This document shows, in pieces, positions 55,204 to 64,000 of a stretch of DNA of 64,000 nt (the stretch's first letter is position 1; every line of letters begins with the position of its first letter). The position numbers and the translations under genes are program-made. Source of the DNA: Escherichia coli. Its GTDB lineage: Bacteria; Pseudomonadota; Gammaproteobacteria; Enterobacterales; Enterobacteriaceae. The stretch lies in the NCBI RefSeq assembly GCF_016026235.1, contig NZ_CP065613.1. One strand, written 5' to 3'. The notes under the pieces were generated by a model that was not told the DNA's origin, searched no databases, and saw nothing but the letters and a program-made list of their open reading frames with translations.

Positions 55204-56496
55204 CTGAGGAATCCCCAGAAAACAAGACAGGCATAGTGAGATGTGATCTAATTGATTGTGCTAACAATTTCAAGGAGATCACCACTATGCCTGCACGTTC
55301 ATTATGCCAAAATTTCCTTAACAATATACTGGCCCCTTTGCATCTTTACCGTCAAAAATCACTGATTGACGCAACTAATGCTGTAATAAATGGCGCTTCC
55401 CTCACACTTACCAGTATCGGGCGTCATTTAACCGGTACGGCATCAGTTAAAAACAAAATAAAGCGGGTGGATCGACTGTTGGGGAATCGACATTTGCAAA
55501 ATGAGGTTTCCACCATTTTTCAGCGAATTACCCAAAAGATTACGCGGGGAATGTCTCGTGTTGTGATACTCATTGACTGGAGTGCTTATCATGCCTCTCG
55601 TTTTCAGCTTTTGCGGGCAAGCCTGGCATGTGACGGGCGTTCTTTACCGTTGATGAGTTGTGTCGTTCCATCATCACAGACAGCGAATGCAGATGTACAT
55701 GAGCGTTTTCTGGAATCGCTTGCTGAGTGCTTTTCCCCGGGACTGATGTCATTGTTATTACAGATGCCGGTTTTCAGGGGCGATGGTTCCAACAGCTCCG
55801 CTCCCGTGGCTGGACCTATATTTGCCGGGTACTGGGCAATCATTATTACAATGTTGGTAATGGCTGGGAAAAGGTGTCGGACTCAGGCACAAAAGCATCA
55901 ACGACAGCAATTTATTTAGGTGAAGGCCTGCTGGGTCGAGATAAAAATGCACAACATGAAGGGCATTTTTATCTTTATAAAAGTAAGCCTAAAGGTCGTA
56001 GATTTAAACGCTCGAAGGAAAGAGCAACCAGACCATCGGTGACGGCTAAAGCTCGTACTGCCGGGAAATCACCATGGTTTATTTTCACAAACAGTACTGA
56101 GTTCTCGCCAAAACAGGTAATGAAATTATACAGCCGTAGAATGCAAATTGAGCAAAATTTCAGGGATGAAAAAAATCCTCGCTGGGGATTTGGACTACGG
56201 TTTGGTGCCAGTCATTCATCCGGGCGGGTCACGGTATTGAGTCTGATCGCAACATTAGCCAGTATCATTATGTGGTTAAGCGGTTTCAGCCTGGAAAACA
56301 AAGGGATACATCATAAATATCAGGCAAATACAGTGAAGCACAGGCGAGTCATCTCGTTATTAAAACTGGCGGAGAATGTGATTCGACATTCTCCACTCAT
56401 ACTAAACACACTGTCACTTGACGCAGGGCTGAAAGTTCTACAGCAACGGTATACCAATATGATAATGGTTTACTAAATTTTCTGGGGATCCCTCAG
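55204..56496 (+). mobile_element. IS10-like (IS4-family) insertion sequence, copy 1 (1293 bp)
   Basis: Terminal inverted repeats CTGAGGAATCCCCAGAAAA / TTTTCTGGGGATCCCTCAG; flanked by direct repeat AGATTGTCC(C). Confidence 0.9.
55287..56476 (+). pseudogene. IS10-like transposase, frameshifted (copy 1)
   Basis: Reading frame splits into ORFs 55197..55919 and 55727..56476; C4 run at 55735-55738 where copy 2 has C5. Confidence 0.85.
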
Positions 56497-61562: not shown

Positions 61563-62078
61563 TTACAGCAAAAGATAACCTTCGTGGCGCAATAACCACT
61601 CTTTTCGCTGAACTCCGCCTGCATATCCGGTCATGGTGCCGTTTCGGCCAATAACCCGATGGCAAGGTACGACGATGCTGATGGGATTCGATCCGTTTGC
61701 CGCACCAACGGCACGCGCCGCGCCAGGGCGGCCCAATTGTTCAGCCAGTTGGCCGTAATGCATTACCTGCCCGCAGGGGATAGTGCGTAGAGTTTTCCAG
61801 ACTTCGCGCTGAAATGGCGTCCCCCCTGTGGCAGTGGGAAGCGTATCAATAATGCTAAGATTACCGGCAAAATAATCACGAAGCTTGTCGCTTAAACCGC
61901 CTGGGTTGGTGGCAGAAATGCGCTCATAGCCTTCTTTGCGATAATGGATGTCCAGCAGCTGCACCATGCGTTCGCTGTACTCTTCCCATTCAACCGCCCG
62001 CAGGCGAAATTGCTCATCGCAAATCACCCACAGTGGACCCAGTGGCGTGGCAATTTTTTCTTCAAGTAATCTCAGCAT
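61563..62078 (-). CDS. ogt: O6-alkylguanine-DNA alkyltransferase
   Basis: 171 aa; active site PCHRV. Confidence 0.93.
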
Positions 62079-62112
62079 CCGTTCTCTCTTAAGACAAACG
62101 TGGGTAAATCCC

Positions 62113-63406
62113 CTGAGGAATCCCCAGAAAACAAGACAGGCATAGTGAGATGTGATCTAATTGATTGTGCTAACAATTTCAAGGAGATCACCACTATGCC
62201 TGCACGTTCATTATGCCAAAATTTCCTTAACAACATACTGGCCCCTTTGCATCTTTACCGTCAAAAATCACTGATTGACGCAACTAATGCTGTAATAAAT
62301 GGCGCTTCCCTCACACTTACCAGTATCGGGCGTCATTTAACCGGTACGGCATCAGTTAAAAACAAAATAAAGCGGGTGGATCGACTGTTGGGGAATCGAC
62401 ATTTGCAAAATGAGGTTTCCACCATTTTTCAGCGAATTACCCAAAAGATTACGCGGGGAATGTCTCGTGTTGTGATACTCATTGACTGGAGTGCTTATCA
62501 TGCCTCTCGTTTTCAGCTTTTGCGGGCAAGCCTGGCATGTGACGGGCGTTCTTTACCGTTGATGAGTTGTGTCGTTCCATCATCACAGACAGCGAATGCA
62601 GATGTACATGAGCGTTTTCTGGAATCGCTTGCTGAGTGCTTTTCCCCCGGGACTGATGTCATTGTTATTACAGATGCCGGTTTTCAGGGGCGATGGTTCC
62701 AACAGCTCCGCTCCCGTGGCTGGACCTATATTTGCCGGGTACTGGGCAATCATTATTACAATGTTGGTAATGGCTGGGAAAAGGTGTCGGACTCAGGCAC
62801 AAAAGCATCAACGACAGCAATTTATTTAGGTGAAGGCCTGCTGGGTCGAGATAAAAATGCACAACATGAAGGGCATTTTTATCTTTATAAAAGTAAGCCT
62901 AAAGGTCGTAGATTTAAACGCTCGAAGGAAAGAGCAACCAGACCATCGGTGACGGCTAAAGCTCGTACTGCCGGGAAATCACCATGGTTTATTTTCACAA
63001 ACAGTACTGAGTTCTCGCCAAAACAGGTAATGAAATTATACAGCCGTAGAATGCAAATTGAGCAAAATTTCAGGGATGAAAAAAATCCTCGCTGGGGATT
63101 TGGACTACGGTTTGGTGCCAGTCATTCATCCGGGCGGGTCACGGTATTGAGTCTGATCGCAACATTAGCCAGTATCATTATGTGGTTAAGCGGTTTCAGC
63201 CTGGAAAACAAAGGGATACATCATAAATATCAGGCAAATACAGTGAAGCACAGGCGAGTCATCTCGTTATTAAAACTGGCGGAGAATGTGATTCGACATT
63301 CTCCACTCATACTAAACACACTGTCACTTGACGCAGGGCTGAAAGTTCTACAGCAACGGTATACCAATATGATAATGGTTTACTAAATTTTCTGGGGATC
63401 CCTCAG
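62113..63406 (+). mobile_element. IS10-like (IS4-family) insertion sequence, copy 2 (1294 bp, intact)
   Basis: Same terminal repeats as copy 1; flanked by direct repeat GGTAAATCC(C); same orientation as copy 1. Confidence 0.9.
62196..63386 (+). CDS. IS10-like DDE transposase (IS4 family)
   Basis: 396 aa; motifs IKRVDRLLGNRHL, ITDAGF, YSRRMQIEQNFRD, YQANTV match IS10 transposase blocks; SD AAGGAG 9 nt before the ATG. Confidence 0.88.
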   Translation: MPARSLCQNFLNNILAPLHLYRQKSLIDATNAVINGASLTLTSIGRHLTGTASVKNKIKRVDRLLGNRHLQNEVSTIFQRITQKITRGMSRVVILIDWSAYHASRFQLLRASLACDGRSLPLMSCVVPSSQTANADVHERFLESLAECFSPGTDVIVITDAGFQGRWFQQLRSRGWTYICRVLGNHYYNVGNGWEKVSDSGTKASTTAIYLGEGLLGRDKNAQHEGHFYLYKSKPKGRRFKRSKERATRPSVTAKARTAGKSPWFIFTNSTEFSPKQVMKLYSRRMQIEQNFRDEKNPRWGFGLRFGASHSSGRVTVLSLIATLASIIMWLSGFSLENKGIHHKYQANTVKHRRVISLLKLAENVIRHSPLILNTLSLDAGLKVLQQRYTNMIMVY

Positions 63407-63554
63407 GGTAAATCCCCGGACCTATCGGCAGACCAACAAGATACCACGCCAGCAACATCAGCAGCCATACCACCAAAAAGATAAGCGGATAGGGCAAGAC
63501 TAACGAATAGTAAGTACCCAGTTTCGCGTCTGGTTTGTCGCAGTCTGATAGCAT
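63348..63554 (-). CDS. Small hydrophobic ORF whose native C-terminus is replaced by IS-derived codons
   Basis: ATG at 63552-63554 (MLSDCDKPDAKLGTYYSLVLPYPLIFLVVWLLMLLAWYLVGLPIGPGIYP...); the frame runs into the IS end at 63406; without the IS it would end ...GIYPRLS ~10 bp before the ogt start; no clear SD. Confidence 0.25.
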   Translation of the reverse strand: MLSDCDKPDAKLGTYYSLVLPYPLIFLVVWLLMLLAWYLVGLPIGPGIYPEGSPENLVNHYHIGIPLL

Positions 63555-64000
63555 AAAGCGATTTTTTGATTTTTCTGCCTGAAGAAATGAGGGCAAGCCA
63601 TCACATGGATCGAGGGTGGGATAATTCCAGTCAGTGAAATTTTACCGTAGGCTATCTGTTATTTGATTCTGTGGCGTGATAGCCGCCAGACACCACTGAA
63701 CTCGTCACTCATTCCCCAATCCCGGCGAGAATGTGGTTATTTACAGAGCTAAAAATGAATAAAAAATAGAGCCTGTCGACATCCGCCAGACTCTACAGTA
63801 CACACAGCAGTGCATCCTCGTCTTAAATCCGGCCTGGGGTCCTTGTGACCGGTGACAGTGTTATAACGGTTTTACCCATCCGTTGCCAATTTTCTTCAGT
63901 GACAGATTTCACGAAAATATAAGTTAAATCATTTGTCTTGTGATTGCATAATCATGCATCGTTAATCGACGAGTAAATTTACCGGGCGAGTAGCCCGTTC

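Follow-up and report, generated by a model that had tools for sequence, protein, structure and literature searches.

This locus raises the question of whether the transposase of an Escherichia coli insertion sequence, whose start codon lies within a long palindrome carrying GATC sites, is controlled in the manner of IS10/Tn10. Control of that kind had been proposed in a preliminary description of the window, i.e., the whole 64,000-nucleotide stretch of DNA that was analysed, and the proposal agrees with all of the sequence-level tests that were run (hairpin, promoters, GATC register and ends). The hairpin corresponds in ISEc60 to the transposase control region of IS10/Tn10 and, judging from the sequence, most likely works alike. 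It is an expected feature and not a new type of system. In IS10, the antisense RNA-OUT is 69 nt long, ends at nt 47 and overlaps the transposase mRNA by 35 nt, and a Dam site overlaps the −10 element (PMC5006887). According to Davis et al. (1985), as cited in a later paper (PMC13181058), the IS10 translation signals are sequestered in secondary structure. A literature search on ISEc60, ISSfl3, IS1330 and ISSd1 turned up no account of how these elements are regulated.

Identity, copies and ends of the element

Both copies of the element in the window are named ISEc60 by annotation. Copy 2 (62113–63406, + strand, 1,294 bp) carries an intact transposase gene (62196–63386, + strand) encoding a 396-aa protein of the IS4 family with a DDE_Tnp_1 domain. 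The NCBIfam model NF033591 (IS4 family) matches this protein over its full length with 360.5 bits against a cut-off of 152, PF01609 is present in its homologues, and it is 36% identical to the IS10A/ISVsa5 transposase over 93% of the length. Copy 1 (55204–56496, + strand, 1,293 bp) interrupts mppA in the same orientation as copy 2, flanked by the duplicated block AGATTGTCCC, and its transposase gene is frameshifted by a 1-bp deletion in a run of C (55735–55738, corresponding to 62644–62648 in copy 2). The control regions of the two copies are the same, with an identical 66-nt hairpin at 55228–55293 and the ATG at 55287 in copy 1, so that the structure had rightly been reported for both.

The left ("outside") terminal inverted repeat of copy 2, CTGAGGAATCCCCAGAAAA (62113–62131, + strand), has no GATC and reads GAATC at bp 6–10, whereas the right ("inside") repeat, TTTTCTGGGGATCCCTCAG (63388–63406, + strand), has a GATC at 63397–63400, i.e., at bp 7–10 from the end. 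This third GATC had been absent from the preliminary description. The ends of ISEc60, CTGAGGAATCCCC and CTGAGGGATCCCC, agree with those of IS10, CTGATGAATCCCC and CTGAGAGATCCCC, at 12 of 13 positions and are of the type CTGA(N)GAATCCCC. By these sequence comparisons, ISEc60 belongs to the IS10 group of the IS4 family.

The block GGTAAATCCC is duplicated on both sides of copy 2 (62103–62112 and 63407–63416). At six insertions the identical block is 10 bp, or 9 bp, the duplication length expected of the IS10 group, if the C preceding CTGAGG is counted as part of the element; a C is found there at every target regardless. The same ISEc60 insertion was searched for in other complete E. coli genomes and was not found there. 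The element reaches dozens of copies in some enteroinvasive E. coli or Shigella-like genomes, the highest figure for a single genome being 39 places. A 12-bp hairpin inside the transposase gene was set aside, as relatives do not keep it.

A hairpin over the transposase start codon

The palindrome in copy 2 is imperfect, spans 66 nt (62137–62202) and can form a hairpin on either strand. Its outer helix is a perfect 11-bp pairing of CAGGCATAGTG (62137–62147) with CACTATGCCTG (62192–62202), the latter arm containing the ATG at 62196. Arms of nine nucleotides had been described previously, GGCATAGTG (62139–62147) and CACTATGCC (62192–62200); these are indeed reverse complements, but the full helix is two pairs longer, and the position of the ATG within the 3′ arm agrees on re-reading. 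The inner helix pairs GTGATCT (62152–62158) with AGATCAC (62185–62191) over 7 bp, and an interrupted apical helix pairs 62161–62168 with 62173–62182. The Shine–Dalgarno sequence (SD) AAGGAG (62181–62186, + strand) lies 9 nt 5′ of the ATG and is partly paired in the long transcript. The inner helix had been said to include the SD; the helix itself stands, but only the AG of AAGGAG pairs there, while the AA lies in the apical helix and the GG in an internal loop. In the predicted fold of the long transcript, the mean unpaired probability is 0.34 for the SD and 0.00 for the AUG, such that the model has the start codon firmly masked and the SD only in part.

RNA folding, which had been suggested as a check, was run and the hairpin forms, with a minimum free energy (MFE) on the + strand of −33.7 kcal/mol against −15.1 ± 2.8 kcal/mol for shuffled sequences (z = −6.75; none of 200 shuffles equal to it). 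The − strand gives −33.4 kcal/mol (z = −6.41). The raw energy is unremarkable: 81-nt windows average −19.3 ± 5.9 kcal/mol, and about 47 loci of the GC-richer 64-kb window equal or beat the hairpin. The raw energy ranking was therefore dropped as evidence, and the case rests on the composition-corrected z-score and on conservation. By mononucleotide shuffling, 0.55 perfect inverted repeats of at least 11 bp with a loop of at most 60 nt are expected per 64 kb. A chance palindrome is ruled out by the shuffle z-scores, the covariation described below and this expected count.

Conservation and covariation

Fifty-one distinct relatives, IS10 and IS10A among them, were aligned with MAFFT without fitting to structure. 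The outer helix is 91.6% paired across these relatives, with both-sided change in 9 of the 11 pairs (for example, CAT/ATG becoming CAC/GTG), and 95.8% paired when only the Enterobacterales clade is considered. Covariation scores 0.259, compared with 0.131 ± 0.007 for shuffles (0 of 500 reaching it) and at most 0.115 when the partners were slid. Comparison among relatives thus indicates that the hairpin is maintained through compensatory substitutions. RNAalifold on the full 51-sequence alignment recovers only eight pairs, all in the outer helix, since distant groups are not correctly aligned with one another in the inner parts; pairs were therefore counted on the structure taken from the ISEc60 fold, a choice that biases the measure of cells paired in its favour over the slid controls. 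Among G–U pairs, 55 are valid only on the + strand and 47 only on the − strand, and this G–U/A–C strand asymmetry is uninformative as to which strand, or both, is selected.

Inward promoter and Dam sites

The candidate homologue of the IS10 inward promoter, pIN, lies within the 5′ half of the palindrome and just before it. Its predicted −35 element, AAGACA (62133–62138, + strand), occupies the alignment columns of the IS10 TGGATA and is separated by 17 bp from a predicted extended −10 element, TG-A-TCTAAT (62153–62161, + strand), in which the GATC at 62154–62157 takes positions −14 to −11. The predicted mRNA start at 62168–62169 (+ strand), placed by spacing and by alignment to IS10 bp 81, falls in the hairpin loop; the predicted leader of 27–28 nt would therefore lack the 5′ arms of the hairpin.

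This first GATC is present in 47 of the 51 relatives, the four exceptions being Oceanimonas elements. Its distance to the ATG is 39–43 nt in 30 of the 30 elements with the site (−42 in ISEc60, −41 in IS10). Around it, TGATC(T/A)A(A/C)T shows conservation of 90% or more, and no relative departs from T at −7 (62161; 51/51). Two GATC sites had been noted in the stem. The second, which is at 62186–62189 and not at 62185–62188, pairs with the first in the inner helix as its palindromic counterpart and lacks conservation of its own (24/51), so that the pair amounts to one conserved site and its echo in the opposite arm. At the termini, a GATC at bp 7–10 is found in the inside end of 32 of 37 elements and in the outside end of 8 of 37; ISEc60, with a GATC in the inside end and none in the outside end, has the same Dam asymmetry as IS10. 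The placement of the GATC sites matches a Dam-regulated element of the IS10 type and suggests that ISEc60 is sensitive to Dam.

A generic scan of 62050–62350 for sigma-70 promoters and intrinsic terminators found nothing. The case for promoters is therefore built on conservation and on homology to IS10. Neither proposed promoter is canonical: the second base of the pIN hexamer is C, and the outward promoter, pOUT, lacks a good −35.

Outward promoter and antisense RNA

The predicted pOUT homologue is an extended −10 element, TGGCATAAT (62210–62218, − strand), whose TGnCAnAnT pattern is conserved across the clade at a constant distance from the stem base (in ISEc60, 7 nt from G62203). The base that gives the −7 T of pOUT is A in 35 of 43 distinct sequences, over codons for eight different amino acids; the motif lies inside the transposase reading frame, where it covers an invariant Cys-Gln/His, and its conservation could thus in part reflect constraint on the protein. 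The predicted antisense RNA (62128–62203, − strand, about 70–76 nt) would start at G62203 at the stem base, with an inferred 3′ end, and would consist of a stem-loop of −31.6 kcal/mol followed by the tail UCUUGUUUUCU. The tract 3′ of the antisense stem is U-rich in ISEc60 (UCUUGUUUUCU) and conserved, reading UCUUUUUUU in most relatives. The RNA would be perfectly complementary to the first 35–36 nt of the predicted mRNA. Positions 81, 115 and 47 of IS10 align with 62169, 62203 and 62134 of ISEc60, and the stem aligns column for column with RNA-OUT. The ISEc60 stem-loop is thus antisense to the transposase 5′ end, with a 5′ side that spans the start codon, as in an RNA of the RNA-OUT type.

The Rfam model of RNA-OUT (RF00240) gave no match at E ≤ 10 in a 10-kb search. 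In a 161-nt search it scored 16.8 bits at 62133–62203 on the − strand, against a gathering threshold of 41, and so did not outscore generic hairpin or miRNA-precursor models; the positive controls IS10 and IS10A scored 98.8 and 85.9 bits. A covariance model built from the ISEc60/ISSfl3 clade alone recovers the held-out IS10 RNA-OUT (24.3 bits, E = 8.2e-5) and also matches elements of Oceanimonas, Colwellia, Pseudoalteromonas and Legionella, in each case at the corresponding position and on the corresponding strand; its E-values are rough, IS10A is missed and Arcobacter reaches only E = 0.28. In the 64-kb window, its matches are the two ISEc60 copies only.

Proposed mechanism and alternatives

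By analogy with IS10, a weak inward promoter (AAGACA-17-TCTAAT with the upstream TG) would produce transposase mRNA from about 62168–62169 in the hairpin loop, and this normal mRNA, lacking the 5′ arms, would therefore have an open ribosome-binding site (RBS). A transcript from outside, e.g., mppA read-through into copy 1, would carry both arms and adopt the −33.7 kcal/mol fold, in which the AUG and part of the SD would be buried, a case of fold-back inhibition. From pOUT (TGGCATAAT, 62218–62210 on the − strand), an antisense RNA of about 70–76 nt would begin at about 62203, its stem-loop formed by the same palindrome; its first 35 nt or so would pair with the mRNA 5′ end and block ribosome binding in trans. 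With many genomic copies, the antisense RNA may cause multicopy inhibition. The GATC in the pIN −10 (62154–62157) and that in the inside end (63397–63400) would couple transposase synthesis and end activity to Dam methylation, and hence to passage of the replication fork.

Thermodynamic prediction is consistent with this scheme. For the short transcript, the unpaired probability is 0.38–0.49 at the AUG and 0.62 over the RBS window. With read-through it falls to 0.00 at the AUG, also in the mppA context of copy 1, and to 0.22 over the RBS window. Of 30 relatives, 26 have an AUG unpaired probability of 0.03 or less in the long transcript, and all 30 have a less accessible RBS window there; IS10 behaves alike. 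In these models, pairing of the start codon is confined to transcripts initiated 5′ of the element's own promoter, as in fold-back inhibition.

An alternative that we consider unlikely is that the palindrome serves only the stability of the outward small RNA, the sense hairpin in read-through transcripts being a by-product. The clade model scores the − strand at 88.2 bits and the + strand at 24.0, being itself trained on the − strand, and the conserved U-rich tract behind the − strand stem is what a discrete small RNA would be expected to have; in IS10, moreover, the stem sets RNA-OUT stability, and the mutations R5 and HH104 destabilise it (PMC5006887). However, any transcript with both arms must adopt the −33.7 kcal/mol fold, in which the AUG is 0.00 unpaired, IS10 offers a documented case of fold-back masking, and the G–U pairs specific to the + strand are at least as many as those specific to the − strand (55 versus 47). 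It is very improbable that there is no internal pIN, all mRNA coming from upstream or outside, the stem-loop acting as a constitutive cis block like that over the IS200 RBS and the GATC region being otherwise used. The empty sigma-70 scan and the C at the second position of the proposed −10 would fit this account, but TG-n-TCnAnT is at least 90% conserved in non-coding DNA with an invariant −7 T and an ATG distance of 39–43 nt, which exceeds the needs of pairing because the opposite arm is free to vary, and the block aligns exactly with the mapped pIN of IS10, which shares the C.

The palindrome also lies less than 90 bp from the outside end, and in IS10 the outside end region is bound by transposase and IHF. 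A role in DNA rather than RNA, as a cruciform or as a site for transposase or a host protein near that end, is nevertheless hardly credible, since pairing is kept by compensatory changes where the sequence is not, and about 100 cells of the G–U type preserve RNA pairing yet break DNA symmetry. A search of 62113–62200 for the IHF consensus with at most one mismatch found none. The preferred reading remains control of the IS10 type, in which the palindrome would act in both the mRNA and the antisense RNA.

Relation to other elements

ISEc60 resembles IS10/Tn10 in its transposase (36% identity), its terminal repeats and a hairpin with the start codon in its 3′ arm, in a GATC placed in the same register of a TG-extended −10 element 41–42 nt 5′ of the ATG, in the predicted 27–28-nt leader, 35-nt sense/antisense overlap and antisense start at the stem base, and in a GATC at bp 7–10 of the inside end only. 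Each motif has its positional match in IS10. The sequence of ISEc60 has nevertheless diverged beyond the reach of RF00240 (16.8 versus 41 bits), and its left end, with the ATG at bp 84 instead of 108, is shorter by 24 bp and contains no IHF consensus. ISEc60 has the strong SD AAGGAG, whereas IS10 has no clear SD (PMC6601013). The ISEc60 stem is more regular and more stable over the same span (−33.7 versus about −19 kcal/mol), a U-rich, terminator-like tail not found in IS10 follows its antisense stem, and its predicted pOUT is of the extended −10 type with no obvious −35.

Closer relatives are the ISSfl3/IS1330-type elements of Shigella, Yersinia, Salmonella, Photorhabdus and others, whose transposases are 50–55% identical to that of ISEc60. 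They share the hairpin, the GATC-containing −10, an outward TGnCATAnT, the U-tract and the asymmetry of the ends; many have 14–20 additional bases separating the hairpin from the terminal repeat, and the SD of this group is weaker (AATGAG or AAGG). IS50/Tn5 likewise has Dam sites over its transposase promoter and its inside end. Unlike ISEc60 as proposed here, however, IS50/Tn5 has no antisense RNA and is controlled via a truncated inhibitor protein. In IS200, the antisense art200 over the 5′ UTR and an RBS-hiding mRNA structure act as independent layers (PMC4513863), which is similar in outline, but the HUH-type transposase is unrelated, the normal mRNA, and not read-through transcripts alone, contains the occluding stem, and there is no Dam component.

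A wider reading, which we favour with some reservation, is that a three-part IS10 control module (an antisense stem with the start codon, a Dam site in the inward −10 and a further Dam site confined to the inside end) is ancestral and spread more widely than the curated RNA-OUT. It would extend over ISEc60/ISSfl3/IS1330 of the Enterobacterales, Oceanimonas, Colwellia/Pseudoalteromonas, Legionella and Arcobacter, and would have been rebuilt in the ISEc60/ISSfl3 branch with a stronger and more regular stem, an antisense U-tract terminator and a strong SD, and would have lost the IHF site. The IS10 paradigm of multicopy inhibition, protection from outside promoters and coupling to replication by way of Dam can be extended to ISEc60 and its relatives as a testable prediction. 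The current Rfam RNA-OUT model is too narrow, and a broader one built from the present alignment would annotate antisense RNAs in many unannotated IS10-group elements. The practical value is modest, and understanding of this class of regulation is unchanged. In copy 2, the predicted outward promoter may now read toward ogt, 35 bp away.

A hairpin over the transposase start codon of ISEc60

An insertion sequence of 1,294 bp occurs twice in the window, as copy 1 (55204-56496) and copy 2 (62113-63406), and RefSeq annotates identical elements as ISEc60. The 396-aa transposase matches the IS4-family model over its full length (360.5 bits, cut-off 152) and is 36% identical to that of IS10A/ISVsa5 and 52% identical to that of ISSfl3; the termini read CTGAGGAATCCCC and CTGAGGGATCCCC, compared with CTGATGAATCCCC and CTGAGAGATCCCC in IS10. 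Just two differences separate the copies, a synonymous SNP (T at 55325 in copy 1, C at 62234 in copy 2) and a 1-bp deletion that leaves C4 in copy 1 (55735-55738) in place of the C5 of copy 2 (62644-62648) and of the reference protein, so that the copy 1 transposase gene is frameshifted. Copy 1 is probably a dead copy with its control region and ends intact. A perfect 12-bp inverted repeat with a 12-nt loop, AGATAAAAATGC/GCATTTTTATCT, was also observed within the transposase coding sequence (62849-62860/62873-62884; 55939-55974 in copy 1); it is not conserved in the relatives, except for a partial version in L001, a Buttiauxella gaviniae locus.

The transposase start codon lies in a 66-nt imperfect palindrome (62137-62202; 55228-55293 in copy 1), for which folding predicts a stem-loop of -33.7 kcal/mol on the plus strand (z -6.75, 0/200 shuffles as good) and -33.4 kcal/mol on the minus strand (z -6.41). 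In the predicted fold, the outer helix (11 bp) includes the ATG and is separated by an internal loop of 4 nt from the inner helix, GTGATCT/AGATCAC (7 bp), which is followed by an apical helix with interruptions. A preliminary description had reported such a stem-loop, and direct reading of the window located its sequences, two corrections apart: the outer helix, described as a 9-bp repeat, is perfect over 11 bp (62137-62147 with 62192-62202), and the second of two GATC sites lies at 62186-62189, one base further right, the first being as described. The inner helix is present, and the structure does recur in copy 1, each copy holding one of the two exact occurrences of the 27-nt hairpin core in the window. 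Masking of the translation start holds in the fold for the AUG, which is wholly paired (unpaired probability 0.00), and just partly for the Shine–Dalgarno (SD) sequence AAGGAG (mean 0.34).

By chance, as judged from shuffles, 64 kb would contain 0.55 perfect inverted repeats of 11 bp that enclose a loop of up to 60 nt. Because the raw folding energy is unexceptional for this GC-richer window, it is the composition-corrected scores and the conservation that carry weight. Relatives were collected as 79 loci from one-genome-per-species contigs, plus plasmid IS10A, ISVsa5 and ISSfl3, of which ISVsa5 is identical to IS10 in the control region; 51 distinct sequences were aligned with MAFFT from -68 to +14. 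The start codon lies within the hairpin 3' arm in every complete element collected. Pairing of the ISEc60 structure reaches 78.1% overall and 91.6% in the outer helix, where 9/11 pairs show two-sided changes, and in the Enterobacterales clade alone 95.8% in the outer helix and 81.9% in the inner part. Compensatory changes include CAT/ATG to CAC/GTG in two GTG-start elements, CAGGCAT/ATGCCTG to GCAAGC/GCTTGC in Legionella, and ACACAT/ATGTG(T) in IS10 versus GCGCAT/ATGCGC in IS10A. Covariation scores 0.259, compared with 0.131 ± 0.007 in shuffles (0/500 reach it) and a maximum of 0.115 for slid partners. Since the helices stay paired through two-sided changes and covariation exceeds that of shuffles, the alignment indicates selection for pairing in the hairpin. 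Counts of G-U strand asymmetry (55 vs. 47) do not distinguish which RNA strand is selected. At L064, another related locus (515-610), the apical part carries a tandem triplication (AAATTCAAC x3) with the outer and inner helices kept, and this hairpin scores 46.9 bits with covariance model R1.

Predicted inward promoter and predicted protection from read-through

Transposase expression in IS10 is controlled by Dam methylation and by the 69-nt antisense RNA-OUT, which is complementary over its first 35 nt to the translation initiation region in RNA-IN, the mRNA for transposase; RNA-OUT ends at nt 47, and a Dam site overlaps the -10 of the inward promoter, pIN (PMC5006887). Starts derived from these numbers are bp 115 for RNA-OUT and bp 81 for RNA-IN, and IS10 bp 81, 115 and 47 align to 62169, 62203 and 62134, respectively, in the window. 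A TGATC(T/A)A(A/C)T block is at least 90% conserved across the 51 sequences, and its last T, the -7 of the -10 hexamer, is invariant (51/51). IS10 and ISEc60 share the layout T(-15) G(-14) A(-13) T(-12) C(-11), a predicted extended -10 whose hexamer is weakened in both by the C of the Dam site, and their -35 hexamers (TGGATA and AAGACA) occupy the same alignment columns with 17-bp spacing. The distance from GATC to start codon is 39-43 nt in all 30 examined elements having the site (-42 in ISEc60, -41 in IS10).

The transcript from the predicted pIN start folds weakly (-6.7 kcal/mol), with an unpaired probability of 0.38-0.49 for the AUG and 0.62 for the -20 to +13 segment. The hairpin is predicted to form in transcripts that read through from flanking DNA, which for copy 1 is mppA, with the AUG at 0.00 and the -20 to +13 segment at 0.19-0.23, and IS10 gave the same pattern in the same calculation. 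Among 30 relatives, the AUG of the long transcript is at most 0.03 unpaired in 26, and the ribosome-binding region is less accessible in the long than in the short transcript in all 30. This modelled accessibility matches the fold-back protection of IS10 from external promoters, as PMC13181058 describes it in the passage citing Davis et al. 1985. Copy 1 is a natural read-through case, lying inside mppA (54965-55207) in the same orientation; the mppA frame stops at the TGA (55205-55207) of the IS terminus (CC-TGA-GG), 21 nt upstream of the hairpin. The transposase frame itself has no in-frame stop between the left end of the IS and the ATG (62100-62195), and databases hold 557-680-aa 'fusion' ORFs (proteins P0001-P0008) in which the transposase is joined to pieces of host genes such as aldA and ydbC. 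Erroneous gene calling probably accounts for these, but translational read-in after an in-frame insertion could in principle get round the predicted fold-back block.

Predicted antisense RNA

A minus-strand motif, TGnCAnAnT (TGGCATAAT at 62218-62210 in ISEc60), keeps a constant distance to the stem base and predicts an antisense start at G62203, which is homologous to the IS10 RNA-OUT start and is also where a weak Rfam alignment begins. The motif sits in coding sequence, and its -7 T comes from a codon third position, at which A is kept in 35/43 distinct sequences across codons for 8 amino acids, a pattern that points to constraint at the nucleotide level. Sense and antisense RNAs are predicted to overlap by 35 nt (62169-62203), the same as in IS10, and the predicted antisense RNA and mRNA 5' end form a perfect 36-bp duplex. 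The antisense RNA is predicted to form a stem-loop of -31.6 kcal/mol with UCUUGUUUUCU as its tail, for which most relatives have UCUUUUUUU; from this stem-loop and U-rich tail, it looks as if the RNA ends at an intrinsic terminator in the ISEc60/ISSfl3 branch.

Dam sites

The 5'-arm GATC is present in 47/51 sequences and the 3'-arm GATC in just 24/51. As GATC is its own reverse complement, a second site is automatic in a perfectly paired helix, and in relatives it is often lost via G-U-compatible changes (AGGTCAC). The 3'-arm copy thus appears to be a pairing echo, leaving one candidate functional GATC in the hairpin, not two. The four sequences lacking the 5'-arm site are Oceanimonas elements (L050, L052, L054 and L055), which keep the start-codon hairpin. 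A further GATC lies at bp 7-10 of the inside (right) end of ISEc60, where the outside (left) end reads GAATC; family-wide, the end site is present in 32/37 inside and 8/37 outside ends, the same arrangement as in IS10. The two complete elements among those four from Oceanimonas show the reverse, with GATC in the outside end and none in the inside end.

Relationship to IS10

With the Rfam RNA-OUT model, the positive controls IS10 and IS10A score 98.8 and 85.9 bits, whereas ISEc60 scores 16.8 bits, below the threshold of 41 and not above what generic hairpin models give, and thus is not a member by the Rfam criterion. A covariance model was built on the ISEc60/ISSfl3 clade alone (38 minus-strand sequences), with distant elements held out. 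It recovers the IS10 RNA-OUT locus (24.3 bits, E 8.2e-5, E-values being rough) and matches Oceanimonas (33-36 bits), Colwellia (40.8), Pseudoalteromonas (30.4) and Legionella (24-25), all at the homologous position and strand; IS10A is missed and Arcobacter reaches just E 0.28. In the 64-kb window it finds the two ISEc60 copies and nothing else. These matches, together with their positions, support a control module homologous beyond the reach of the curated Rfam model.

The elements differ in several respects. The ATG is at bp 84 in ISEc60 and bp 108 in IS10; the ISEc60 stem is more regular and more stable; the U-rich antisense tail is absent from IS10; and the predicted outward promoter, unlike that of IS10, has an extended -10 but no evident -35. 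ISEc60 has a strong SD, whereas IS10 lacks a clear one (PMC6601013). In addition, a search for the IHF consensus in the left end of ISEc60 found none, a difference from IS10. Conservation, covariation and motif positions support the resemblance to IS10 transposase control proposed in the preliminary description. A literature search turned up no published study of how ISEc60, ISSfl3 or IS1330 is regulated. The ISEc60 control region is an uncharacterised example of a familiar regulatory design that came down, together with the transposase, from the IS10 lineage, and a specialist would expect IS10-type control here.

Insertion sites and neighbourhood

Six independent ISEc60 insertions all have targets of the form GG(G/A)N4-5TCCCC, resembling the element's own terminus GGAATCCCC. 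The duplicated blocks lie at 55194-55203/56497-56506 (copy 1) and 62103-62112/63407-63416 (copy 2), with others in the related loci L083-L086, and comprise 10 bp, or 9 bp plus an extra C assigned to the element. ISSfl3-type relatives have GC...GCG-type target sites instead.

Copy 2 lies upstream of ogt (61563-62078, minus strand), whose start codon is 35 bp from the left end of the element (62113), and the predicted outward promoter is directed toward ogt. The outward promoter of IS10, pOUT, activates flanking genes. The insertion may split ogt from its own promoter, with IS read-out as a replacement. A short minus-strand ORF ending just before ogt is interrupted by copy 2. The McaS sRNA gene (63758-63853, minus strand, 108.8 bits) lies about 350 bp from copy 2; by the K-12 gene order, ogt-abgT-abgB-abgA-abgR-mcaS, the abg operon seems to be mostly missing between ogt and mcaS. 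This junction was found in no complete E. coli genome of the collection searched, which suggests a Shigella-like genome. Directly upstream of the ISEc60-like element at L001, positions 169-339 match the Rfam sok model at 105 bits, a hok/sok-type antitoxin RNA.
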